In this document: piece by piece, positions 50,320 through 63,854 of the stretch
How positions within the stretch are numbered: the first letter of the stretch is position 1
Layout: each line of letters opens with the position of its first letter
From: Aquificaceae bacterium
GTDB lineage: Bacteria > Aquificota > Aquificia > Aquificales > Aquificaceae
Assembly (NCBI GenBank): GCA_037925075.1
Contig: JAXSNR010000001.1
Span: forward strand, 672,001 to 736,000
Direction of reading: 5' to 3'
Length of the DNA stretch: 64,000 nucleotides
The notes under the pieces: generated by a model
The model's database searches: none
What the model was told of the DNA's origin: nothing
What the model saw: the letters and a program-made list of their open reading frames with translations, nothing else
Program-made: the position numbers and the translations under genes

Positions 50320-50814
50320 ATGAAAGCCACAAGCAAAAAGGAGTTAAAAGAGCTTTATGACAAAGACTTTCCCCTTTGGGCTGAGATAAACTTAGAACTT
50401 CTAAAAGAAAAAGCCTATGACCTCGTAGACTGGGAAAACCTATTGGAGGAAATAGAGGATATGGCAAGGTCTGACCTAAGGGGTTGTATAAGTCAGTTGG
50501 CAAGGATTTTGGAACATCTTTATAAGTGGGATAACTTCAAAGAGCTAGCTGGTGGTAAAACCGCAGGTATGGGATGGGTCAGAAGCATAGAGAATGCAAG
50601 GAACGAAATACTTGATACCTTTGACCTATCACCAAGCCTAAGGTCAAAACTGCCTTTGGAGCTTGACACTGCTTGGCGTTTTGCAAGGAGAAGGCTAAAC
50701 ACATGGCTTGTGCAAAACAACCAAAGACCAGAAGATTTTCATATCCCCGAAGAATGCCCCTACACTTACGAAACTGCCATGACAAGGGACTTAAGGAAGG
50801 AGATAAAACCATGA
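50320..50814 (+). CDS. DUF29 family protein, copy 1
   Basis: LYDKDF..W, DWENL.EEIE.M, LEHL.KW, W..SI...R, P.ECPY. Confidence 0.85.
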   Translation: MKATSKKELKELYDKDFPLWAEINLELLKEKAYDLVDWENLLEEIEDMARSDLRGCISQLARILEHLYKWDNFKELAGGKTAGMGWVRSIENARNEILDTFDLSPSLRSKLPLELDTAWRFARRRLNTWLVQNNQRPEDFHIPEECPYTYETAMTRDLRKEIKP

Positions 50815-51305
50815 AAACCATAAGCAAGGAAGAGTTAAAAGAGCTTTACGACAAAGATTTTCCCCTTTGGGCTGAAATCAATTTAGAGCTTCTTAGGGAA
50901 AAAGCCTATGACCTTGTGGATTGGGAAAATCTCCTGGAGGAAATAGAGGATATGGCAAGGTCGGACTTAAAAGCCTGTATAAGCTATTTAGCGGTGATTT
51001 TGGAACACCTTTATAAGTGGGACCACTTTAGAGATTTGGCAGGTGGAGAAACTGCGGGAAGGTCTTGGATGAAAAGCGTAGAAAAGGCAAGGAACGAGAT
51101 TAGAACCATGTTTATGGATTATCCAAGCTTGAGGAATAAACTTCCCAACGAAGTTGAAAAGGCGTGGAGACATGCGGTAAGCAGGCTAAAAGGATGGCTT
51201 ATAGACAATGACTACGAGCCAGAGGACTTTAACATACCTGAAAAATGCCCCTACACTTACGAAACCGCCATGACAAGGGACCTAAGAAAGGAGATAAAGC
51301 CATGA
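50811..51305 (+). CDS. DUF29 family protein, copy 2
   Basis: Same motifs; ATGA-coupled start at 50811. Confidence 0.85.
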   Translation: MKTISKEELKELYDKDFPLWAEINLELLREKAYDLVDWENLLEEIEDMARSDLKACISYLAVILEHLYKWDHFRDLAGGETAGRSWMKSVEKARNEIRTMFMDYPSLRNKLPNEVEKAWRHAVSRLKGWLIDNDYEPEDFNIPEKCPYTYETAMTRDLRKEIKP

Positions 51306-51790
51306 AAACCATAAGCAAAGAAGAGTTAAAAGAGCTTTATGACAAAGATTTTCCACTCTGGGCTGAAATCAACTTGGAGCTTCTAAAAGAAAAAGCCTAT
51401 GACCTTGTGGATTGGGAAAACCTATTGGAGGAAATAGAAGATATAGCACAGAGGCACTTAGATGCTTGTGTAAGCTATTTAGCGGTTATTTTGGAACACC
51501 TTTATAAGTGGGACCACTTTAGAGACTTAGCGGGCGGAGGGACCGCAGGGAGAAAGTGGATAAAGAGTGTTTTGGTCTCAAGGCTGGAAATAGATGCCAT
51601 GTTTAAGAAATACCCAAGCCTGAAATCAAAGCTACCCAAAGAGCTTAAAACCGCATGGATAGACGCTAGAAAGGAGCTATTCAAGTGGCTTATTAAAAAG
51701 GACCTTGACCCAGAGAACTTTTCCATACCCGAAGAATGCCCCTACACTTATGAGATTGCAATGACAAGAGACCTAAGAAGGGAACAATGA
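51302..51790 (+). CDS. DUF29 family protein, copy 3
   Basis: Same motifs; ATGA-coupled start at 51302. Confidence 0.85.
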   Translation: MKTISKEELKELYDKDFPLWAEINLELLKEKAYDLVDWENLLEEIEDIAQRHLDACVSYLAVILEHLYKWDHFRDLAGGGTAGRKWIKSVLVSRLEIDAMFKKYPSLKSKLPKELKTAWIDARKELFKWLIKKDLDPENFSIPEECPYTYEIAMTRDLRREQ

Positions 51791-53076
51791 GACTTTTTTT
51801 ATTACTTTTGGAGGTGTTTTTTATGGCTACGCTGGTTCTTGCGGGAGAATTAAAAACCTACAAACTTCCCAACGGTGCAAAGCTGGTGATAAACAGAAGG
51901 GAGGATACGGAGGCGGTCGCCCTGCATGTATGGTTCAAGGTAGGTTCCATATACGAAGATTATCAACAAAAGGGCATGGCTCACTTTTTGGAGCATATGC
52001 TCTTTAACGGCTCTGAAAAGTATCCCTATGGGCAGATAGATTACATAGTGGAAAGTTTGGGGGGCAATCTCAACGCAGGCACTTCAAAGGAATACACCTT
52101 TTATCACATAACCATAGCAAAGCCTTATTGGAAAGACGCTCTTGAGGTACTTTACCAGCTTACCCAAAAGCCACTCCTTTTGGAGGAGATGGTGGAAAAG
52201 GAAAAGCCCATTGTGATTGAGGAGCTAAGGCGTGGGAAGGATAACCCAACCACAGTCCTATGGGAAGAATTTGAAAAACTCCTTTACAAGGTATCTCCCT
52301 ACCGCCATCCCATAATAGGCTACGAGGAAACCATCCAAAAGTTCAGTAGAAATATGCTTCTTGAATTCTACAGAAACTTTTACCAGCCCAGAAACATGTA
52401 TGTGGTGGTTGTGGGAGATGTGGAGCCAGAGGAAGTTTATAGGGAGGTGTTAAAAACCTTTGGGAGGGAAGAGGGTAAGCCTGTGCCAAAAGTGGAGCTA
52501 ATTCCCGAACCAGAGCAGTTAGAAAACCGTTCAAAGACCATAAGGGACAAAAGGGTAGAAAAAGCCTATTGGCTAATAGGCTGGAGAGTGCCAGCCATAG
52601 GCACAAAGGAATACTACGCCCTTGTGGTACTTGACCAACTTCTGGGCAGTGGTAGAACATCTCTTTTTTACAGAGAGCTGAGGGAAAAGGGTGTAGTCTA
52701 TAGCATATCCACAGGAGACTTTGGAAGACCAAGGGACAACCTTTTCTTTGTTTATGCAACCCTTGAGGGAGAGAGGTTTCAGGAGGTAAAGGATAGGGTC
52801 TTTGGACTGATGAAAAGCCTAAAAGAAAGCCTTACAGAGGAGGAGCTACAGAAGGCAAAGCAAAGGCTTATAAACTCTGAGGTTTTTGCCCTTGAAAGGG
52901 TGGAAAGGGATGCCTTTTACATTGGCTATTCTCTTGCGGTGGTTGGGCTTTTGGACTACTACAAATACTTTGAAAACAACATAAGAAGCGTCCGTCGTGA
53001 AGATGTGATTAGAGTACTTGAAAAGTATATTCTTGGCAAGCCTTACGGTGAAGTCCTTATGGTACCAGAGAAATGA
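51787..53076 (+). CDS. M16B zinc peptidase, catalytic subunit
   Basis: GMAHFLEH (HxxEH), NAGT, VIEE. Confidence 0.93.
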   Translation: MRLFLLLLEVFFMATLVLAGELKTYKLPNGAKLVINRREDTEAVALHVWFKVGSIYEDYQQKGMAHFLEHMLFNGSEKYPYGQIDYIVESLGGNLNAGTSKEYTFYHITIAKPYWKDALEVLYQLTQKPLLLEEMVEKEKPIVIEELRRGKDNPTTVLWEEFEKLLYKVSPYRHPIIGYEETIQKFSRNMLLEFYRNFYQPRNMYVVVVGDVEPEEVYREVLKTFGREEGKPVPKVELIPEPEQLENRSKTIRDKRVEKAYWLIGWRVPAIGTKEYYALVVLDQLLGSGRTSLFYRELREKGVVYSISTGDFGRPRDNLFFVYATLEGERFQEVKDRVFGLMKSLKESLTEEELQKAKQRLINSEVFALERVERDAFYIGYSLAVVGLLDYYKYFENNIRSVRREDVIRVLEKYILGKPYGEVLMVPEK

Positions 53077-54326
53077 GGTTTATAATACTTGTGCTTTTTA
53101 TTCTAAGCCTTTCCTTTGGAGGTGCAAGAGTGCAGGAATACATCCTTGAAAAGGGAGTAAAGCTTATACTAAAAGAAACAAAGGGCAAGGGTATAGTCTC
53201 TGGGGTTGTCTTTATAAAGTCTGGCACGCACGGAGAGGAAAAAAGAGGTCTTACGAACCTTACAGCACTATTACTTACAAAAGGCACAAAGAGCTACAGC
53301 TCCTATCAGATTGCCAGCACCTTTGAGGACTACGGTGGGAGTGTGTATGCATCCGCAAGCGACGACTATGTGGAGATAGGCTTTTCCACCAAGTTGGAGG
53401 GACTGCGGGAAGGCCTTTTGGTTATAAGGAGCATGCTTACAGAGCCATCCTTTTCCCATGAGGATGTGCAAAGAGAAAAGCAGAACCTACTTCAAGCCAT
53501 AAGGTCAAGGAGGGAAAGTGGTCAGGAGCTTGCGGTGGATGCCCTCAGAAGGCTAACCTACAAGGGCTCCAACTACGAGGTGGTGCCTCTTGGACTTGAG
53601 GAGGATGTAAAAAGCATAAGCAGGGAAGACATTGTCAGAAGGTGGAAACAGATACTGCGTTCCAAAAATGTGGTGGTGAGCCTCGTGGGAGACTTCAAAA
53701 CAGAAGAGGTTCTGCCCATGCTAAAAGAGGTCTTTTCTGAAATTCCTGAAGGGGAATACGCCATAAACCCTGTGGAGATTCCTATGGAAAGGGACCTTTT
53801 GGACAGGGTAAAAAGGCCCGGTTCTCAGGCGACGGTGATGTGTGCCTTTGACGCTCCAGACTTTAAGGGTGAGGAATACTTTGCCTTTAAGGTTTTGGAT
53901 GCGGTGCTTGGTGATGGCATGACTTCAAAGCTCTTTAAAGAGCTCAGAGAAAAAAGGGGCTACGCCTATGCGGTCTATTCCACCTATCCCACCCGCCTCT
54001 CTTCTCCGAGGCTTATAACCTACATAGGCACCTCTCCAGAAAAGAAGGAAGATGCCCTAAGAGACATGGTGAGCTTGGTAAAAGAGGTTCAAATCACGCC
54101 CGAGGATGTGGAGCTGGCAAAGAACAAGATTGTGGGAGACTTTCTTCTTTCTCGCCAGACAAGGTCAAGACAGGCTTTCTATCTGGGCTTTTTTGAGGTG
54201 ATGGGCTTTGGATGGAAGATGGACGGGCAATATACAGACAGGATAAGAGCGGTTAGCTTTGAAGAGGTACAAAAGGTAAGAGAAAAGTACCTAAAGGTAC
54301 ATCACTGTGTTGTGGTGGAACCCTGA
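53073..54326 (+). CDS. M16B peptidase, non-catalytic partner subunit
   Basis: M16 fold without HxxEH; S.LF.ELREKRG.AY. Confidence 0.88.
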   Translation: MRFIILVLFILSLSFGGARVQEYILEKGVKLILKETKGKGIVSGVVFIKSGTHGEEKRGLTNLTALLLTKGTKSYSSYQIASTFEDYGGSVYASASDDYVEIGFSTKLEGLREGLLVIRSMLTEPSFSHEDVQREKQNLLQAIRSRRESGQELAVDALRRLTYKGSNYEVVPLGLEEDVKSISREDIVRRWKQILRSKNVVVSLVGDFKTEEVLPMLKEVFSEIPEGEYAINPVEIPMERDLLDRVKRPGSQATVMCAFDAPDFKGEEYFAFKVLDAVLGDGMTSKLFKELREKRGYAYAVYSTYPTRLSSPRLITYIGTSPEKKEDALRDMVSLVKEVQITPEDVELAKNKIVGDFLLSRQTRSRQAFYLGFFEVMGFGWKMDGQYTDRIRAVSFEEVQKVREKYLKVHHCVVVEP

Positions 54327-55370: not shown

Positions 55371-55763
55371 ATGCTTGAGCTAAGAAGTCTTCCAAAGGTT
55401 GCCAACGAGCTTTTCAATGCTCTGCACGAGGATGAACTACAGCTGATAAATGAACTATACTTAGCCTGTGAAAAGGAAGATCTCGCAGAGGCAGACAGGT
55501 TAATGGATCTGCTCCTATACGATGTGGAGGAGCATTTTTCTACGGAGGAGGAGCTTATGAAGGAGGCGGACTTCTTTGCCTATCCTATGCACAAGGCGGA
55601 GCACGACACTATGAGAGGAGACCTAAAAGCCCTATACAGCAACTGGAAAACATCAAAGGATACACCCATGGTAATGGACTTCATAAAGGATAAGCTTATT
55701 CCGTGGCTTTTGCTACATATATCCCGTTGGGATTCAGTGACCGCCATGCATATAGGAAGCTAA
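55371..55763 (+). CDS. Hemerythrin-like protein
   Basis: H, EHF..EE..M, HK.EH, WL..HI...D; SD AGGAGGT. Confidence 0.88.
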   Translation: MLELRSLPKVANELFNALHEDELQLINELYLACEKEDLAEADRLMDLLLYDVEEHFSTEEELMKEADFFAYPMHKAEHDTMRGDLKALYSNWKTSKDTPMVMDFIKDKLIPWLLLHISRWDSVTAMHIGS

Positions 55764-56219
55764 AAAGCCAAACCATAGCACATTGCTGGCAAGATGGAGA
55801 AGGCTCACCAAGGCTAAGGATCCAGTCCTTTGGTACGCATAGCCATAAAAAAGGGAAGGGAAAAAGGTAAGCACCGACCAAAGGTCTGTATAAAGCACCA
55901 CATGGGGCAATGTAAAAAGCACTGAAACCACAAGGTTTGAAAACCTTTGCATAAGGTAGGCTCTAAAAAAAAGCTCTTCCGCAAAAGCCTGAAGGGCCAA
56001 GCTGGCAAAGTCTTTGGGATACAAAAGGTACAAAGGGGGCAAAAGAAGAAGGCTCAAGTTCCATACACTTTTTAGCCCAAGCTTCTCCGACGGTAAGAAA
56101 ACAAGAGGAAGCAAAAGCACAATTATGCCAAGGTTGGGCAAGCCAAAGAGTCTATGAAATAGGATATTAAAGAGAAAAAGTCCATAAAGTAAGAGCTCAG
56201 TATATCCTTTTATAGACAA
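55734..56219 (-). CDS. CPBP (CAAX-II) glutamic intramembrane protease, MrtJ/myxosortase-like
   Basis: EELFFRAYL, F...H, TFFPSL.YG, H...N; last gene of the T2SS run. Confidence 0.82.
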   Translation of the reverse strand: MSIKGYTELLLYGLFLFNILFHRLFGLPNLGIIVLLLPLVFLPSEKLGLKSVWNLSLLLLPPLYLLYPKDFASLALQAFAEELFFRAYLMQRFSNLVVSVLFTLPHVVLYTDLWSVLTFFPSLFYGYAYQRTGSLALVSLLHLASNVLWFGFLASYMHGGH

Positions 56220-57045
56220 TTTTCCCCTCCTGTCTGTCGTATATTGCGGAAAAGCTTATGCTGTAGCCTCCGCTTTTTAGGTCCATCACAAGGTGGAAGA
56301 ACCTGCTTTTGGTGTCTATGTAGTTTTTCATCTTGTAAAGCATATCAAAGGTAAAGCCCTCCACAAGCACAAGGTCATCGGGCCTTTTGAAGGGCTCCTT
56401 TGCCCTCCTCTCTATTATCTTACTTGCGAGGGTTTGGTCTATGCGGGGGTCAAGTGCCATAAGCACAGGCATGGGTGCGGTGTTTATATTTACCTTGCCC
56501 GAAGAGAAGGTGGTGGTAAGGCTCCAAAGCCCGGGGTAAAAGTCTTTTCCTATGGTCTTGCCTTGTAGGTCTTCTGGCTTAAAGCCCACATAAAGGAGCT
56601 CTTCCTTTGAGTTAAGGGGTGCCCTCTTTATGGGATAAGGGCTATCAAAGGCACCATCCTTTTTGCCTATCCAGGTCAAAAGCCTATCAAGGTACTGGGA
56701 GTCAATCCTTAGGTAGGAAAAAAGGTGTTTAAAAAGCTCCTGATGTTCTCCTGCGGTGTTTAGGTTTATGTATCGGTCCTCGTCGTATATGGTGATGGTG
56801 AGCTCTCCCTTTTCGGTTTTAAAGCTCAGTGGGTATGCCCACCTTTCCTGAAGGTGGTCCACAGAGGGGTCGTCAGGCCTTATTATTTCTATGGCAAGGG
56901 GGAGTGCGGACCTGAAAACATAGAGGGCTTGGGTGCGTGCATAAACCTGTTGAACCGCCATCTGCGTACTTTTTACGCTTGCAAAAAGGTCCAAAACCAC
57001 AAGGCTGGCACTTATAAAGAGTATAAGGGCAAGGATTATGGTCAT
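56197..57045 (-). CDS. gspK: Type II secretion minor pseudopilin K
   Basis: N-terminal TM, D.L.E.WA, DE...IN.N, VNINTAP..VL.AL. Confidence 0.87.
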   Translation of the reverse strand: MTIILALILFISASLVVLDLFASVKSTQMAVQQVYARTQALYVFRSALPLAIEIIRPDDPSVDHLQERWAYPLSFKTEKGELTITIYDEDRYINLNTAGEHQELFKHLFSYLRIDSQYLDRLLTWIGKKDGAFDSPYPIKRAPLNSKEELLYVGFKPEDLQGKTIGKDFYPGLWSLTTTFSSGKVNINTAPMPVLMALDPRIDQTLASKIIERRAKEPFKRPDDLVLVEGFTFDMLYKMKNYIDTKSRFFHLVMDLKSGGYSISFSAIYDRQEGKIVYKRIY

Positions 57046-57434
57046 CTTATGGTCATTTCCACCTCATACAGCCCCTGTCCCGTGTTGTCCACGGATATGA
57101 ACTTTCTAATCTCAACGCCCGAACTTTCCAAAGAATATACAAGCTTTGGGAGGTTTTCGCCTCTTAGGTTTCTTGCCTTTACCTCATAGCCTACATCCAC
57201 CTGTTTAAAGGACACAAAGTCAGCCCCCACCTCTGATAGCTTTTGCCTTACAAAGCCCTCATCTATTGTAGCCTTCTGTCTTGTCTGATAGTTCTTTAAA
57301 AGTAGCATAACCTCCTTGTACCGTAGGTATTCCGCATAGTAGTTGTCCCTTAGCCTGTAGTAGTGGTCAAGAAGAAGGGCAAGGAGCAAAAAGGTCAGCA
57401 AGAAAAGTATAAGGTTTATCCTACTTGCACTCAT
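57042..57434 (-). CDS. Type II secretion protein M-like
   Basis: Single TM plus ferredoxin-like periplasmic domain; position between gspL-like and gspK. Confidence 0.55.
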   Translation of the reverse strand: MSASRINLILFLLTFLLLALLLDHYYRLRDNYYAEYLRYKEVMLLLKNYQTRQKATIDEGFVRQKLSEVGADFVSFKQVDVGYEVKARNLRGENLPKLVYSLESSGVEIRKFISVDNTGQGLYEVEMTIR

Positions 57435-58588
57435 GGCGTTTTCAGTTCAAACTCCACCTTTCCTGTGGGTGTTTCCTTTGTGGAGAAGAGCTTTAGCCCT
57501 TCGAGGGTTTTTCTTTCAGCCTCCCCCTTTACGGTAAGCCTTCCCTCCGCGTACTCAATGCGGTAAAGCCTCATGCCGGGCTTTAGAGATTCTTGAGCCC
57601 TCAAAAGAAGCTTTGTAAGTTTGTACTCTTCACCGCTTGACACCTTTGCCCTAACCTGCTCATAAAGGGAGATTATGGGTTCTTTTGGGAAGTGCTTTTT
57701 GAACTCTGTCCTCTGTATGTCTCTGAGCTTTTCCACCGAGTAGAGCCTTTGCATGGCAAAGAAGCTAAGGAAAAAGGCGACCGCAACCCCTCCACCCACA
57801 TAGGCAAGCCTTTTCATCTCCTGAGGGCTTAGCTCCCTTTGGGCAAAGTCCGGGTAAGGGTTTTTTAGAACTTCCCTAAGGCACGTACCTAAGCATACCG
57901 CATACTCCGGCTCGCAATAGGTCAATTCCACAGCCTCTGGGAAAAGGCTTTTTAGGCCCCTCATCCTTGAGCCCCCGCCCGTAAGAAGCACCTTATGGTC
58001 TTCAAAGTTGTATCCCGAAAGCCCCAAAATCTCCTCAACCCCCTCTCTTATTTCCTTCGCACTTAGCCCTTCTGACCTCTTTAGCCTTTCCGCACTTTCA
58101 TAGTCCAAAGACCTACCTTCCGCCAACCTCTGGGTGAGATAGTTGCCACCCCTCAGGACAAGCCTAAAGGACCTCAAAAAGCCTTCCCTTATCTCCACAA
58201 AAACCGTCTTTCTCCTCCCCCAGTCTATCACAAAAAGCTCATCACCGTAAAGACTTCCAAGCCTTGCAAGGGCAAAGGGCTCAAGCTCCACCCCTTCGTA
58301 CTGCTCACATCCTCTGCACAGGGCAAGGTAGGCCCTACCTTGGGAAAGCTTGATGTCATACCTTGCGTCCGAAAACCTTTCCTTGACGTACTGCATAAGC
58401 TCTTTGGCCTTTGCCCTTTTACTCTCTTGTGCGTAAGCCTCCACCTTTATGAGGACCCTGTCGGAGGGAATGCATGTTATAAGCCTTCCAGTTTTTTGGG
58501 AGATTTTCCACTCTTTGGAGAGCAAGCTGTATTCAAGGCTTAGACTCTTTTCTCCATCCTTTGCACTTATAACCCTTTTAAGCCACAT
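57431..58588 (-). CDS. Type II secretion protein L-like (actin-like PilM domain + TM + PilN-like)
   Basis: VIDWG...T, GG..LT, AE.LK, LTGGGS, TM, V.GEA. Confidence 0.72.
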   Translation of the reverse strand: MWLKRVISAKDGEKSLSLEYSLLSKEWKISQKTGRLITCIPSDRVLIKVEAYAQESKRAKAKELMQYVKERFSDARYDIKLSQGRAYLALCRGCEQYEGVELEPFALARLGSLYGDELFVIDWGRRKTVFVEIREGFLRSFRLVLRGGNYLTQRLAEGRSLDYESAERLKRSEGLSAKEIREGVEEILGLSGYNFEDHKVLLTGGGSRMRGLKSLFPEAVELTYCEPEYAVCLGTCLREVLKNPYPDFAQRELSPQEMKRLAYVGGGVAVAFFLSFFAMQRLYSVEKLRDIQRTEFKKHFPKEPIISLYEQVRAKVSSGEEYKLTKLLLRAQESLKPGMRLYRIEYAEGRLTVKGEAERKTLEGLKLFSTKETPTGKVEFELKTP

Positions 58589-60005
58589 TTTGGTCCTCTG
58601 TCTTTACCGCCCTTAGAAGCTCCTCCGAAGTGGTTATACCCGCAAGGACTTTCCTTATGCCATCTTCAAGCATGCTCTTAAAGCCCCTTGTCTTGGCAAA
58701 GTTCCTAAGCTCCACCGCATCCTGAGTCCTTAGTATGTACCTTTTTACCTCCTCATCCACTTCCAAAACCTCGTATATGCCAGTCCTTCCCCTGTAGCCA
58801 GTTCCCATGCAATGCTCACAGCCCCTGCCACGATAAAAGGTGTATTCACCAGAAAGGCCAAGCTCCGAAAGCTCTTCCTGTGTGGGCTTATAGGGTTCTT
58901 TACAATGCGAACATATTTTACGCACAAGCCTTTGGGCTATAATACCTTCAAGGGCTGAAGCAATAAGAAAGGGCTCTATCCCAAGGTCAAAAAGCCTTGT
59001 GATGGCGGAGGGTGCGTCGTTTGTATGCAAGGTGGAAAGCACCAAGTGTCCCGTCAGGGCGGATTGCACCGCTATCTGTGCGGTTTCTGAGTCCCTTATC
59101 TCCCCCACCATGATCACATCTGGGTCTTGTCTGAGGATGGCTCTGAGCCCTGTCGCAAAGGTAAGCCCCACCTTTGGGTTTACCTGTATCTGGCTTACGC
59201 CCTCTATCTGGTATTCTGGCGGGTCTTCTATGGTGATAATGTTTCTCTTTGGGCTTTTTATCTCAAGGATCATGGCATAAAGGGTGGTGCTTTTGCCCGC
59301 ACCGGTGGGTCCTGTGGCAAGCACAATGCCGTAGGGTTTTTGAGAAAGTCTTCTGAGCTTTGTAAGGTCTTCTTCCCAAAGGCCCAAGTCCTCAAGCCTT
59401 AGGATTTTTCCACCCTTTTCTAAAAGCCTGAGAACCACCCTTTCACCAAAGACGGTGGGCACCACCGAAACCCTTATGTCAAGGTGCCTTGTGCCTACCC
59501 TTACAGCTATCTTTCCATCTTGCGGGACCCTTCTTTCCGCCACATTGAGGTTTGAAAGTACCTTTATACGAGATACCACCTGCTCATGCAAGGAAAGGGG
59601 TATGCGCGTGTATTCGTGAAGGATTCCGTCAAGCCTTATCCTTACCAAAGCCTGCCCTTCGTAGGGCTCTATATGTATATCAGACGCCCCCACATTTACC
59701 GCCTTAATAAGCACCTGATTTACAAAGCTTACTGCCGGGCTTGTCTCTTCCTCATAGAGGATATCCTTTATTTCCGAAGACTCTCCCTCTTCTCCTTCAA
59801 TCTGCACCTCCTCCTGAGCCAAAGCTTCCTGTAGCCTTTGGGCAAAATCCTCCTCTGGCACAAAAACGGGTATGACCTCCTTTCCAAGAGAAAAGCGAAG
59901 CTCTTCAAGGACGGATGGGTCCAAACCCTTTGGTGCCAATACCTTCAAAAAGTCTTCTCCCTCTTCAAGGGGCACAAGCCTGTATTCTTTTAGCACCTTA
60001 GCCAT
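58578..60005 (-). CDS. gspE: Type II secretion ATPase E
   Basis: ASDIHIEP, GPTGAGKST, TIEDP, LRQDPD..MVGEIRD, CSHC/CEHC. Confidence 0.93.
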   Translation of the reverse strand: MAKVLKEYRLVPLEEGEDFLKVLAPKGLDPSVLEELRFSLGKEVIPVFVPEEDFAQRLQEALAQEEVQIEGEEGESSEIKDILYEEETSPAVSFVNQVLIKAVNVGASDIHIEPYEGQALVRIRLDGILHEYTRIPLSLHEQVVSRIKVLSNLNVAERRVPQDGKIAVRVGTRHLDIRVSVVPTVFGERVVLRLLEKGGKILRLEDLGLWEEDLTKLRRLSQKPYGIVLATGPTGAGKSTTLYAMILEIKSPKRNIITIEDPPEYQIEGVSQIQVNPKVGLTFATGLRAILRQDPDVIMVGEIRDSETAQIAVQSALTGHLVLSTLHTNDAPSAITRLFDLGIEPFLIASALEGIIAQRLVRKICSHCKEPYKPTQEELSELGLSGEYTFYRGRGCEHCMGTGYRGRTGIYEVLEVDEEVKRYILRTQDAVELRNFAKTRGFKSMLEDGIRKVLAGITTSEELLRAVKTEDQNVA

Positions 60006-60028
60006 GCTTGGTATAATTTTACACCACC

Positions 60029-61900
60029 ATGTGGCTTATAGTACTCTTTCTTCTTGGCATTGCCTTTTCTGGGGAGGTAAAGGTCCTCTACGAAGATGGC
60101 AGGGTAGGTGTAGTTTCCGAAAAAGCCCTCAAAAGCCTCAAGTCTCGGGTTTTGTATGTGGAAAAGCCAAAAAGGCTGTGGCTCAAGGATGAGATACTCA
60201 GAAGCTCCGCCGTAGGTGTATGGGTCAGTGGTCAGTATAAGGCTTCTCTTCCCGTAAGTGCAGGACAGAGAATAGGGTTTTCTTCCATAAACACCCAGCT
60301 AAGCTTTTCTGGTCCATGCACCCAGTCTGGAAGTCTCTTGGTATGTACCTCCGATGGAACTCTGAACATAACCGCCAGCTCCTCCAACGGAAATTTTGCC
60401 CTGTGGAGCGAGACCCATGCCCTTAGCCTTCTTCCAAATGCTTACTGGCTTGGCACATCCGCAAGGCTTTCGGGGGGAACTGGGAGTGGTGTGCTTGTCG
60501 CCGTGGTGGACTCGGGCATAGACCTTTGCCATCCTGAGTTTGAGGACAGGATAGTGCTTTTTTATGATGCGGTCACGGGTCAGGAGTTTGACCAAAACAC
60601 CATAAGACAGAAAAGACAAAACGGGGACTGTGATTATGACTATGTAGGACACGGCACCGCTGTGGCAAGCGTGCTGGCTGGCAGAAACGGAATAGCACCC
60701 GATGCAAGCATGGTGGTGGTGAGGGTAGCAGACCCCTCGGGTGTTATTTATGATACAACGCTTATACGAGCCTTACAATATCTTAAAAACAAGCAATCAC
60801 AGCTTGGAAGGCCCATGGTGGTAAACCTTTCCCTTGGAAACACCCTTGGGCCGGCGGACGGCACGTACCTTCTTGACCTTGCCATAGACCAGCTATCGGG
60901 CAGTGGTTTTGTGGTGGTGGTTGCCAACGGCAACGAGGGAGACCTTCCCATAAGGGCGGTCATTGAAAATGCAAGTTCTGTAAGCATTCCTGTAAGTCTT
61001 ACCAGTGATCTTCCCTTTGAGCTTTGGTACGGAGGAAACTCCTCCTACAGGGTGGAGCTTTGCGACAGTCAAAACCGATGCGCGGTATCACAAAAGGACT
61101 CGCAGGTAAGCGGAAATCTTCCATGCGTGAGCTATGTGGAACACAGAAGCTACCCCCTGAACGGAAAGGTTTATGCAAGCTTTGACCACAGCTGTGGTGG
61201 TAGCTACACCCTTAGGCTTTCCCTTGCCTCTGGCTCACCATCAAGGGTGGACCTCTTTGGGGGCTTTGAGGGCAACTCCTTTGGTGCCTATACAGTGCCA
61301 GACGGACAAGGGGGATATCTCTACACGGTAGGCCAGCCAGCAACCGCAAGAAGGACAATAGGGGTAGGGGCTATAAATTTAAGGTCCTCTAACGGTCTTG
61401 GTATGCTTGCCTTTTTCTCCTCACGCGGTCCAACCGCTGACGGCAGGACAAAGCCAGAGATAGTGGTAGGGGGTGCATGGGTTTATGTGGCCACCGAAGG
61501 TGGAGGCTATGATTACAAACGAGGCACCTCCATTTCCTCACCCGCGGTCGCGGGCCTTGTAGCCCTTATGCTCCAAGCCAACCCATCCCTTACACCAGAA
61601 CAGGCTAAGGAGCTTCTCTGTCAAAACGCCCTAAAGGACGGTGCTGTTGGTAGCACACCCAACAACCTCTACGGCTGTGGAAAAGCCCATGCGGTAGCCC
61701 TAAGTGCCAATAATCCGCCACCCACAGAAAACTCAACCAACCCACCACCCACTATAAACCTGCCACCACCCACAGAAAGCCCCTCCTCAGGTGGTGGTGG
61801 TGGTTGCAGTACAGGCTCATCCACCTATCTGTGGTCTTATGCCCTTTTTGTAGTGCTTTTACTTCTTAGGAGGTTCAAGGGCAAGCTTGACCGCATGTAA
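60029..61900 (+). CDS. Secreted S8 subtilase with Pro/Thr linker and C-terminal GlyGly-Cys-TM-basic sorting signal
   Basis: Signal peptide; VDSG, GHGT, ANGN, GTSISSP; ends SSGGGGGCSTGSSTYLWSYALFVVLLLLRRFKGK. Confidence 0.9.
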   Translation: MWLIVLFLLGIAFSGEVKVLYEDGRVGVVSEKALKSLKSRVLYVEKPKRLWLKDEILRSSAVGVWVSGQYKASLPVSAGQRIGFSSINTQLSFSGPCTQSGSLLVCTSDGTLNITASSSNGNFALWSETHALSLLPNAYWLGTSARLSGGTGSGVLVAVVDSGIDLCHPEFEDRIVLFYDAVTGQEFDQNTIRQKRQNGDCDYDYVGHGTAVASVLAGRNGIAPDASMVVVRVADPSGVIYDTTLIRALQYLKNKQSQLGRPMVVNLSLGNTLGPADGTYLLDLAIDQLSGSGFVVVVANGNEGDLPIRAVIENASSVSIPVSLTSDLPFELWYGGNSSYRVELCDSQNRCAVSQKDSQVSGNLPCVSYVEHRSYPLNGKVYASFDHSCGGSYTLRLSLASGSPSRVDLFGGFEGNSFGAYTVPDGQGGYLYTVGQPATARRTIGVGAINLRSSNGLGMLAFFSSRGPTADGRTKPEIVVGGAWVYVATEGGGYDYKRGTSISSPAVAGLVALMLQANPSLTPEQAKELLCQNALKDGAVGSTPNNLYGCGKAHAVALSANNPPPTENSTNPPPTINLPPPTESPSSGGGGGCSTGSSTYLWSYALFVVLLLLRRFKGKLDRM

Positions 61901-62914
61901 GGCGCTTGAAAAGGAGGTGCCAGAAAATACCCTTTCCACACCACCCACACCCAAAGCCCTGACCCTGTATGGCTCTCTTGGGTAGCCCTCGCACAACCCC
62001 TTTGGAAAGCATGGGTCTCCCGCCACCTTTAGGACCTCTGGGTGCCTTGCGGGAAAGGGAAGAACCTTTGAGGGCTCGTTGCCCACCGGTGCCACCACCA
62101 AAAAGCCAAGCTTGGATATGCCAGAGATGATAAGGCTTGCCAGCCTGTCCTCTCCGTACATACCAAAGGGCGTGTTTATGACCCTTACCCCATCCCTTAC
62201 ACACTCCACCAAAGCTTTGGCAAAGGCAAAGGAGGTGCACCTGTTTTCGGAGCATACCCTATGAAGATAAACCATCCCACCCCTTGAACCCACAAGGTAT
62301 GCGTTGGCTGTGCCGTGGTCCTCCGGAAGGTAGGGGCTTTTTAGGTGGTTTTCTACCCTTAGTAGAAAGCTCCCCACAGCCTTTTGGTCTGCACCCGTAT
62401 CAAGAAGGCAAAGGCTCGCACCACCTCCTTTTGGTTGAAGCTTTTCAAAGCCCACCTGTGCGTAGCCCTCACCAAAAAGCTCGTATAGGAAGTTGGGCTG
62501 GACAAAAAGAACCCTGTCGCCAAGGCTTTCTTCCAGCTCCCTTTGGCTCTTTTCCCACCTAACAAGAGAAAAGCTGATATCTTCAAACACACCCCTATCT
62601 ATTACCTCAAGCCCCTCCAAAAGCCCCCTATGGACCACTATAAACTCAAAGGGTACAAAGGCTGGCATTCTCTGACCCTTTTCAGCCTTGCCCTCCGTGG
62701 GTTTGGCGGGTGCCATCTTTGAAAAGATAAGGCTAAGGATAAGAGTGCCCAGTACCGTACCCAGCACCGCACCCACGCCAGTACCACCCCCACCACCGCC
62801 ACTCTGAGGGGGTTGAGGGGTGGGTTGTTCCTGCCTTTGACCAGGGATGGGAACTATCACCGTCTGAGAAAACCCAAAGGAAAAACACACCAAAAGGCTC
62901 AAAAGCCACCTCAT
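61859..62914 (-). CDS. Compact S8-like peptidase with N-terminal poly-Gly + TM segment
   Basis: Signal peptide, SGGGGGG-TM, VQPNFLY, LLDTG, DHGT, VGN, SGTSFS. Confidence 0.75.
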   Translation of the reverse strand: MRWLLSLLVCFSFGFSQTVIVPIPGQRQEQPTPQPPQSGGGGGGTGVGAVLGTVLGTLILSLIFSKMAPAKPTEGKAEKGQRMPAFVPFEFIVVHRGLLEGLEVIDRGVFEDISFSLVRWEKSQRELEESLGDRVLFVQPNFLYELFGEGYAQVGFEKLQPKGGGASLCLLDTGADQKAVGSFLLRVENHLKSPYLPEDHGTANAYLVGSRGGMVYLHRVCSENRCTSFAFAKALVECVRDGVRVINTPFGMYGEDRLASLIISGISKLGFLVVAPVGNEPSKVLPFPARHPEVLKVAGDPCFPKGLCEGYPREPYRVRALGVGGVERVFSGTSFSSALHAVKLALEPPKK

Positions 62915-62980: not shown

Positions 62981-63508
62981 ATGGAGGAGCTTATAAGAGC
63001 CATAGCCAGGGGCGAAGAAAAGGCCCTGAGGGAGCTTATAAGAAGGATGCAGGGAAGGGTGTATGCCTACTGCTACTCTCTCGTGGGCTGTCAGGAGGAT
63101 GCGGAGGAGCTCACCTCGGAGGTTTTCTTTCAGGTGTGGAGGTCCGCCAAGAAGTTCAGGGGGGATTCAAAGGCGACCACATGGATATTTGGCATAGCCA
63201 GAAACCTTTGCTTGAACCATCTTCGGAAAAGGAAGATCCAGTTTATGGAGCTTTTGGAGGCCGATGCGGTCTGCGAGCCGGAGGAGGAGCCAGAGTGCGA
63301 CCCAGAGCTGATAAAGAGAGCCATGGAAAGGCTAAGCCCCCTTCACAGGGAGGTGCTTTACCTTGCCTACTACGAGGAGCTTCCCTATTCAAGTATAGGG
63401 GAATTGTTGGGAATTCCAGAAAGCACGGTAAAGACCCGGGTTTTCAACGCAAAGAGAAGATTAAGGGAGATTATAGAAAATGAAGCGAGCAATAAAGGAA
63501 TATTATAG
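62981..63508 (+). CDS. ECF sigma factor
   Basis: DAEEL..EVF..VW, TWIF.IARN, G.PE.TVKTR..NA. Confidence 0.93.
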   Translation: MEELIRAIARGEEKALRELIRRMQGRVYAYCYSLVGCQEDAEELTSEVFFQVWRSAKKFRGDSKATTWIFGIARNLCLNHLRKRKIQFMELLEADAVCEPEEEPECDPELIKRAMERLSPLHREVLYLAYYEELPYSSIGELLGIPESTVKTRVFNAKRRLREIIENEASNKGIL

Positions 63509-63854
63509 GGAAAAAGCACTGAAAAAAGACATAGAGACAGAGGCGATTTTGCGGATAAGAGAACACAGACTAAAAATATGGAAGTTGCTTTCTTTTGCCC
63601 TCCTTAGCCTTAACTTTTCCCTTATGACCTTTTTATTCGTGAACCTAACAAAAACTGAATACGAAACCATGTCCGGTGGTTACGAGGTGCATATACGGGA
63701 CGATGTTAGCTTTTCTCAGTTAGACCAGTTTTTGAGAAGACACAACCTATTTATAAAGGGACCTACACCGGAGGGCACATACCTTATAGAAGGTGCAAGC
63801 TCGGATACCATAAAAGCTATAGAAAAGTCAAACATCTTTAGACCAAAGGATTAA
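63480..63854 (+). CDS. Putative membrane anti-sigma factor
   Basis: Overlaps ECF stop; short basic N-terminus, one TM, extracytoplasmic domain YETMS..L....I.GP...G.Y. Confidence 0.6.
   Translation: MKRAIKEYYREKALKKDIETEAILRIREHRLKIWKLLSFALLSLNFSLMTFLFVNLTKTEYETMSGGYEVHIRDDVSFSQLDQFLRRHNLFIKGPTPEGTYLIEGASSDTIKAIEKSNIFRPKD

Follow-up and report, generated by a model that had tools for sequence, protein, structure and literature searches.

What does the small intramembrane protease encoded at the end of a type II secretion system (T2SS) gene run act on, and does the tagged subtilase encoded beside it on the opposite strand point to a protein-sorting route? The question is raised by a 64,000-nucleotide stretch of the genome of an Aquificaceae bacterium (GCA_037925075.1, contig JAXSNR010000001.1, positions 672,001 to 736,000; hereafter the window), in which a CPBP protease, T2SS genes and a secreted subtilase with a Gly-Cys-helix-basic C-terminus adjoin one another. 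We consider it likely that they belong to a myxosortase-like sorting route common to most Aquificota, in which the tag would be cut by the CPBP protease and the protein exported by the T2SS. The occurrence of this modular tail on unrelated secreted proteins, its co-occurrence with the protease, the recurrent linkage of the genes and their co-deletion support this route. The genome of the window is called G000 below (contigs C1 and C2; 99.95% complete); other G-numbers denote genomes, L-numbers loci, g6, g14, g22 and g26 genera, and f4 a family.

The divergent locus and its components

On the minus strand of the window, gspE, encoding the T2SS ATPase (58,578-60,005), is followed by a gspL-like gene (57,431-58,588), a gspM-like gene (57,042-57,434), gspK, encoding a minor pseudopilin (56,197-57,045), and the gene of the candidate sorting enzyme, a 161-residue CPBP (Rce1-like) glutamic intramembrane protease (55,734-56,219). 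Successive genes overlap by 11, 4, 4 and 23 nucleotides, and every coordinate given by the first-pass annotation was confirmed in the sequence. GspE has TIGR02533 as its top match (609.9, cut-off 630.25), and GspK matches NF037980 (96.1, cut-off 130) and PF03934 (42.7, cut-off 24.2). A PilB-like paralog, separate from gspE, lies elsewhere in the genome. The proposed gspL and gspM held as to position, which is conserved in related loci, and not as to family, since NCBIfam and Pfam scans gave no match to a T2SS L or M family. The product of the former, placed between gspE and gspM, has weak FtsA and PilM matches under cut-off that suggest an actin-like (FtsA/PilM) fold; the latter is assigned as an inner-membrane protein from position and size only.

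The plus strand encodes a 623-residue S8 subtilase (60,029-61,900; PF00082, 155.4 bits), in which an N-terminal signal peptide precedes the intact catalytic motifs of D161, H208 and S501, a Pro/Thr linker and a C-terminal tag. Its ATG, at 60,029, is 24 nucleotides from that of gspE, with 23 nucleotides between the two start codons. The tripartite tag (61,790-61,900) comprises GGGGG-C593 (Cys codon 61,805-61,807), a Ser/Gly spacer, a hydrophobic helix and RRFKGK (61,868-61,885). Both the close spacing of the starts and the composition of the tail agreed with the earlier description.

The protease, in which the predicted motifs E81-E82-L-F-F-R86, F102xxxH106 and H142xxxN146 were verified, is a single-copy protein and the sole PF02517 member over cut-off in G000 (47.4 bits, cut-off 22.4). 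E81, E82, R86, H106, P121, S122 and H142 are invariant across 30 orthologs; position 146, Asn in the window protein, is Asp in the five f4 rows. The predicted structure (pLDDT 94.6) has MmRce1 (4CAD) as its best fold match, with a VIA-align Z of 12.3 and a root-mean-square deviation of 3.1 over 145 aligned residues, the next unrelated row being at Z 5.1; Z values below about 13 are common among helical bundles, and Foldseek gave an E-value of only 0.22 for the same pair. SpdC (6U0O), which we take to be a CPBP-fold scaffold partner, was second best (Z 11.4). Profile score, motifs and modelled fold together place the window protein among the CPBP/Rce1 glutamic intramembrane proteases. Its closest named relatives are from Aquificaceae, Hydrogenothermaceae and Desulfurobacterium/Thermovibrio, under generic public names.

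The remaining T2SS genes, as well as the gene of a second tagged protein, are found 10-18 kb past the subtilase, outside the window. There, gspF, G, I, J, C, D and N form one divergent run (C1:746660-752291), so that the idea of enzyme, machine and cargo in one divergent locus holds here for gspE-L-M-K, with the other T2SS genes further away. The whole island, of which the window covers half, measures about 25 kb and comprises the two parts of the T2SS together with the protease and two cargo genes. GspD (482, cut-off 351.35) and GspG (173.5, cut-off 88.85) score over their cut-offs; GspE, F, C and K are top matches, yet under cut-off, and GspI and GspJ are also in the set. An lgt gene is found about 6 kb past gspN (C1:758453-759223), a nearness that may be due to chance.

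The protease would not serve the subtilase alone, the cargo paired with it in the first-pass annotation: G000 encodes three C-terminal tags and one internal tag, and cargo genes also occur elsewhere in the genome. The second C-terminal tag is carried by a CSLREA/choice-of-anchor Q and U protein (C1:744211-746010), whose gene is separated from the gspF-G-I-J-C-D-N run by one small lipoprotein gene. The third is on an SBBP propeller/DUF7948 protein (L002:8865-10718, plus strand, equivalent to C2:708864-710717), with an in-frame TAA downstream of the signal peptide that would make the gene either a pseudogene or an assembly error. A GGC-helix-basic pattern, set after the tails had been seen, was found in 3 of 900 G000 open reading frames of at least 250 residues, against 0.04 per shuffle of the last 50 residues.

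Tag and protease across the Aquificota

Beyond G000, the tail was again found on unrelated secreted proteins. Forty-two aligned Aquificota tails have the form (G/S)3-GG-C-(S/N), after which come a short polar spacer, a helix and, 16-28 residues past the Cys in 41 of them, a basic pair; the tail profile was seeded from CPBP neighbourhoods and selects for G-C. A second Cys occurs in 1/42 and a DP motif in 0/42. The window tail has a polar spacer of 6-8 residues past the Cys and a helix without Pro. Among 32 tagged proteins scanned for cargo domains, we counted 16 subtilases, six cytochromes, three SBBP propellers, two Ig-repeat proteins, one PKD protein and one weak DUF5123 match, three being without match. 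By a crude test, 29/36 tagged proteins have a hydrophobic N-terminal stretch, and the seven that are missing it are downstream halves of stop-split cytochrome genes. Genomes have 1-10 profile matches each.

Co-occurrence was determined in 151 Aquificota genomes with E-value thresholds of 1e-30 for CPBP and 0.01 for the tail, for which two profiles were used, and with the rhomboid family as control. The searches gave 108 CPBP matches with the single protein as query and 112 with a 30-row alignment, 111 for gspK and 131 for rhomboid; weak gspK matches in G041 and G073, covering the helix-hairpin-helix part only, were excluded from the co-occurrence count. The first-pass annotation had named a tail confined to one protein and a lack of phyletic co-occurrence as grounds for refutation; neither held, since other proteins have the tail and its distribution goes together with that of this CPBP clade. 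Both are present in 90 genomes, CPBP alone in 17, the tail alone in 8 and neither in 36. The corresponding split for G000-G075 (at least 95% complete where listed) is 51, 9, 1 and 15. GspK is also present in 85 of the 90 genomes with CPBP and tail. The control gave 88 genomes with rhomboid and tail, 43 with rhomboid only, 10 with the tail only and 10 with neither. Since rhomboid was found in 27 of the 36 genomes lacking both CPBP and tail, missing assembly does not explain these double negatives.

In g6, gspK is present in 6/7 genomes, CPBP and tail in 0/7, and the closed g6 genomes G023 and G030 have gspD over cut-off and no PF02517 protein. In g14, CPBP, gspK and tail are found in the same three of five genomes. 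All three markers are absent from G011, G021, G024, G044, G063, G067 and G075, which represent six genera. One 24-kb deletion, common to the closed genomes G008 and G010, has brought C1:728100 and C1:752184 together in G000 coordinates (L033, L068, L214). Lost with it were the two parts of the T2SS, two cargo genes and approximately the first 40 codons of CPBP, whose truncated remnant now adjoins the gspN 3′ end. A hemerythrin gene is additionally absent from G010.

Gene linkage recurs in varied forms. Among the matches listed, 11/77 genomes (five genera, two families) have a tail no more than 3 kb from CPBP, and 20/74 genomes from three families have one within 10 kb of gspK. The one-locus layout of the window is lineage-specific, CPBP abutting gspK in 27/93 genomes, again among the matches listed, from four genera of one family. 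CPBP directly adjoins tail genes, with no T2SS genes nearby, in L042, L043, L064 and L040, the last having pseudopilin genes at a distance of 3 kb.

Three of the eight tail-only genomes belong to g22 (G096, G109 and G135), each with a CFI-box-CTERM domain, by which their matches are best explained; they were rejected as true tags. The G109 match falls on that domain itself (L213:2162-4264, minus strand), a position confirmed for G109 only. Since CFI-box-CTERM occurs in 3/3 g22 genomes without a CPBP of this clade, its Cys motif would need another enzyme or none. Weak tail matches in G008 and G034 corresponded to short frames or an unrelated efflux gene and were likewise discarded.

The proposed route, its known relatives and its rivals

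In the proposed route, the cargo would cross the inner membrane through its N-terminal signal peptide (Sec), and the tag helix would then hold it in the membrane with the basic cluster, as its anatomy suggests, in the cytoplasm. The Cys after the Gly run would probably receive a lipid from a general enzyme, for instance Lgt, and the single-copy CPBP, by analogy with MrtX, would cut just past this Cys and free the helix. Export by the T2SS could then bring the folded protein, with its lipid anchor, to the outside of the cell, where the subtilase of this strain would act as a surface-tethered protease. Such a route would extend Cys-tag sorting by CPBP proteases to a further whole phylum overlooked by curated models, make the surface proteome of these hot-spring and vent bacteria predictable from the tag, and offer a very small (161-residue) thermostable enzyme-substrate pair for questions of Cys modification and cut site.

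Precedents exist in other phyla. MrtX cuts MYXO-CTERM in a Cys-dependent manner in Myxococcus xanthus and Escherichia coli; in the same report the lipid on this Cys and its enzyme are unproven, Lgt being the authors' candidate, and VesB is given as a GlyGly-CTERM serine protease displayed on the surface in a T2SS-dependent manner (PMC11980579). According to the main text of the Haft preprint (bioRxiv 10.1101/2023.06.07.544157), MYXO-CTERM is confined to Myxococcota and Bradymonadales, and the tags tied to T2SS are Synerg-, MYXO- and GlyGly-CTERM. The first-pass annotation had placed JDVT-CTERM loci beside T2SS genes; this has to be corrected, as the preprint puts JDVT-CTERM genes beside the protease gene MrtJ instead. 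That text mentions neither Aquificota by name nor Aquifex or Hydrogenobacter, although its figures, Table 1, supplements or journal version could list some. No account of this tag in Aquificota emerged from a literature search that covered subscription papers thinly, in line with the earlier statement that no such system was known in the phylum.

Scoring against curated NCBIfam models gave a divided answer: the best protease matches are all of myxosortase type, with none over cut-off. The window protein scores 48.6 with Mrt_core (cut-off 100), 41.1 with MrtJ (75) and 37.6 with MrtS (130). The Mrt_core, MrtP, MrtC, MrtS, MrtZ and MrtJ models are matched by 30/30 orthologs, the best scores being 81.3/100 for Mrt_core and about 56/75 for MrtJ (NF033192). 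An FFPS stretch conserved in the 30 orthologs resembles the MrtX segment RLSVFFPALIFGW, which the main text of the Haft preprint ties to substrate recognition. In a tree of 108 CPBP rows, obtained by a quick method with many long branches and no curated Mrt reference, the 30 Aquificota rows fall inside a 46-row group (SH-aLRT 89) that also contains Nitrospirota/Thermodesulfobacteriota-type proteins, without demonstrating Aquificota monophyly. Among six Planctomycetota CPBP loci (L143, L145, L168, L172, L175 and L176), five have gsp genes beside them and two a GGC-helix-basic tail nearby; the arrangement is therefore wider than Aquificota.

For the tails, 25 of the 42 were scored singly and all 42 together in one scan. 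With MYXO-CTERM and its proteases MrtX, MrtC and MrtP (TIGR03901, TIGR03382, NF040914) the Aquificota system shares a tripartite Cys tag on unrelated secreted proteins, a single-copy CPBP with an FFP segment and, as proposed here for Aquificota, T2SS export. It differs in having 1-10 tags per genome instead of 3-73, a second Cys in only one aligned tail, a much shorter enzyme (about 160-200 residues) and frequent linkage of this enzyme to T2SS or cargo genes, whereas in the preprint's main text Haft saw no such linkage. The window tail reaches 12 of 20 with TIGR03901, passed by 4/25 other tails, and 14.8 or 16.2, depending on the cut, with TIGR03382 (cut-off 15.85). Synerg-CTERM/MrtS (TIGR04564/NF040589) is similar in its Ser/Gly run leading to a single Cys, helix, basic cluster, cognate CPBP and, in the available account, co-occurrence with a divergent T2SS; it differs in phylum, in the low MrtS score given above and in an invariant helix Pro that the window tail lacks. 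TIGR04564 (cut-off 22.5) does not match the window tail and is passed by 1/25 other tails. JDVT-CTERM/MrtJ (NF033191/NF033192) has the GGC motif, the single Cys and a protease gene adjoining a cargo gene, as in the 11/77 genomes above; it also has a near-invariant DP nine residues past the Cys, which no Aquificota tail shows, and Aquificota have several cargo genes per genome and a vertical-looking spread over the phylum. NF033191 weakly matches 19/42 tails (best 23.4 of 27) and is passed by 0/25, with no match to the window tail. Membership in JDVT-, Synerg- or GlyGly-CTERM was rejected, the curated scores and the hallmarks (DP, helix Pro, rhombosortase) being lacking. Judged by its sequences, the Aquificota system is a new lineage variant akin to the MYXO-, Synerg- and JDVT-CTERM systems and a member of none.

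A number of observations weigh against the proposed route. The genomes are kin, so that Fisher p-values overstate the association and the contrasts between lineages matter more; a tail profile seeded in this way could overlook tails that have diverged in genera without CPBP, and some circularity lies in the invariant G and C of the alignment. Neither the window CPBP nor its 30 orthologs pass a curated Mrt model. An intact CPBP persists in the closed genomes G031 and G061, which have no gspK, no gspD over cut-off and no tail at E-values up to 10. Conversely, PF02517 gave no match in G032 (99% complete) or G080 (96%), both of which have tails. CPBP and gspK without a tail at an E-value of 0.01 are found in G034, G051, G055 and G072, all drafts of 30-180 contigs. 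The four genomes of g26 lack the tail and combine a T2SS with a CPBP that falls short of the 1e-30 threshold; if g26 is counted as CPBP-positive, the CPBP-only genomes rise from 17 to 21. The CPBP of G025 (g26) nests on a long branch in the f4 clade, which could mean that it decayed once the tag had been lost or that it acts on some other substrate. G031 encodes two near-identical, intact CPBP copies (L045, L046), for which action on another substrate is possible.

Three other explanations were weighed. The CPBP might cut the tag and leave the cargo periplasmic, in the inner membrane or freed, the T2SS linkage reflecting other cargo. T2SS without tails in g6, g26 and G111 would fit this, as would G032, which encodes a tagged protein, yet no gspK and no gspD over cut-off, and the often periplasmic location of multiheme cytochromes, such as MccSep in the available part of PMC13510729. 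We regard it as unlikely in view of the presence of gspK in 85/90 genomes with CPBP and tail, the tails near gspK in three families, and cargo (proteases, adhesin-like repeats, choice-of-anchor U and Q) typical of surface proteins. Somewhat less probable still is that the tail is a plain, uncleaved anchor and that the CPBP, whose role would be a different or non-proteolytic one, only accompanies the T2SS island. The intact CPBPs of G031 and G061 and the fold match to SpdC speak for this, together with the observation, in the available text of PMC11980579, that some uncleaved MYXO-CTERM protein is surface-located even without MrtX; yet the catalytic residues are invariant in 30 orthologs, the CPBP stands beside tail genes without a nearby T2SS in four loci, and a plain anchor would have no need of a fixed Cys.

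A GlyGly-CTERM-type signal cut by a rhomboid (TIGR03501/TIGR03902) appears very improbable. Like the Aquificota tag, GlyGly-CTERM combines a Gly motif, a helix and a basic cluster, G000 has one generic rhomboid, and 1/25 tails passes TIGR03501. That signal, however, lacks the Cys, its enzyme is a serine intramembrane protease, the window tail does not match TIGR03501, and the rhombosortase model TIGR03902 gave no match in G000 at an E-value of 0.001. Rhomboid is present in 43/53 tail-negative genomes and absent from 10/98 tail-positive ones, a distribution that does not track the tail, and it was therefore set aside as the sorting enzyme. The route through CPBP cleavage and T2SS export thus remains the reading that we favor.

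Cytochrome cargo, internal tags and neighboring genes

The Desulfurobacteriaceae-like family f4, for whose CPBPs and cytochromes there are matches among named proteins of Desulfurobacterium and Thermovibrio, displays a distinct cargo. All 14 tagged f4 genes inspected (L103-L110, L244-L256) encode multiheme c cytochromes, with 8 CxxCH motifs and approximately 800-1500 residues; one adjoins a 28-heme gene. In ten distinct loci, an in-frame TGA occupies one conserved place, after the signal peptide and one CxxCH and ahead of seven more, and an eleventh locus has a stop there. A hairpin about 15 nucleotides downstream of the TGA is the same in 10/10 loci, and selA was found in 4/4 f4 genomes tested. 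No interruption is seen in two tagged paralogs, which have Ser close to the TGA place, and one other is broken by several stops. Of seven full-length relatives, three show a Cys no more than two residues from this place, the rest having Ser or another residue, which is no more than suggestive. On these features the TGA likely encodes selenocysteine. Gene callers split these tagged eight-heme cytochromes at the TGA (27/28 closest database proteins begin after it or without the first heme); they are candidates, so far overlooked, for a role in the extracellular respiration of sulfur at vents.

Comparable proteins are known. MccSep/ExtKL and the TIGR04315 octahemes are also multiheme c cytochromes with an in-frame TGA and, in the available descriptions, a downstream hairpin. 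MccSep differs in being periplasmic with five hemes (PMC13510729), whereas the f4 proteins are larger, have eight CxxCH and end in a Cys tag; this periplasmic selenoenzyme is required for Geobacter sulfur respiration, and Aquificota go unmentioned in the accessible portion of that paper. The f4 proteins match TIGR04315 weakly (at most 67.7 of 375), and none matches the ExtKL model at an E-value of 0.01. A selenocysteine form of the TIGR04315 octahemes is already listed in the accessible text of PMC13188914, and porin-cytochrome clusters are known from Desulfurobacterium/Thermovibrio according to that of PMC4245776. Our literature search found no description of the tagged f4 cytochromes.

G000 also encodes a secreted protein with an internal GGC-helix-RR tag (C1:394506-397628, equivalent to L203:4507-7629, minus strand). 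The tag is directly followed by a second signal-peptide-like stretch, then by a TPR and beta-barrel part (DUF560-like by feature search), and the gene is frameshifted near its 3′ end. The fusion occurs in four congeneric genomes (G058, G081, G086 and G089), and in G129 and G034 the barrel part has a gene of its own. A parallel is MXAN_5598, in which an internal MYXO-CTERM tag is fused to a beta-barrel protein, as given in the available text of PMC11980579. In relatives, the genes after the fusion are presumably FecR-like and CHASE2-like.

A broader reading can be offered only tentatively, and we judge it doubtful as a whole: an uncatalogued, phylum-wide Cys-tag route might carry proteases and adhesin-like cargo in Aquificales and surface selenocysteine eight-heme terminal reductases in the f4 vent sulfur reducers, and might split internal-tag polyproteins too. 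If so, the f4 reductases would act on elemental sulfur, polysulfide or another external acceptor, as a C-terminal-lipid counterpart of Shewanella MtrC/OmcA display, and the same enzyme would divide the internal-tag polyprotein into a surface protein and an outer-membrane TPR-barrel.

Back in the window, the divergent promoter region between subtilase and gspE (59,990-60,028) contains an extended -10-like TG-TATAAT on the plus strand that ends 11 nucleotides before the subtilase ATG and matches the consensus at 10 of 12 positions, a weak match since the region has 11 such sites against 6.6 expected. Within 60,006-60,028, a -10-like hexamer stands 10-11 nucleotides before the ATG of both divergent genes and a Shine-Dalgarno sequence is absent, which suggests near-leaderless transcripts from overlapping promoters. 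At its 3′ end, the tagged subtilase gene is overlapped by 42 nucleotides by a second divergent subtilase-like gene (61,859-62,914, minus strand), whose product has a Gly run and a helix near its N-terminus, without a Cys there; this gene faces an ECF sigma factor gene (62,981-63,508, plus strand) and a probable anti-sigma gene (63,480-63,854, plus strand). On the other side of the T2SS run, a tandem array of three paralogous open reading frames of about 165 residues each (50,320-51,790) is followed by two overlapping genes that we take to encode M16-like peptidases (51,787-54,326).

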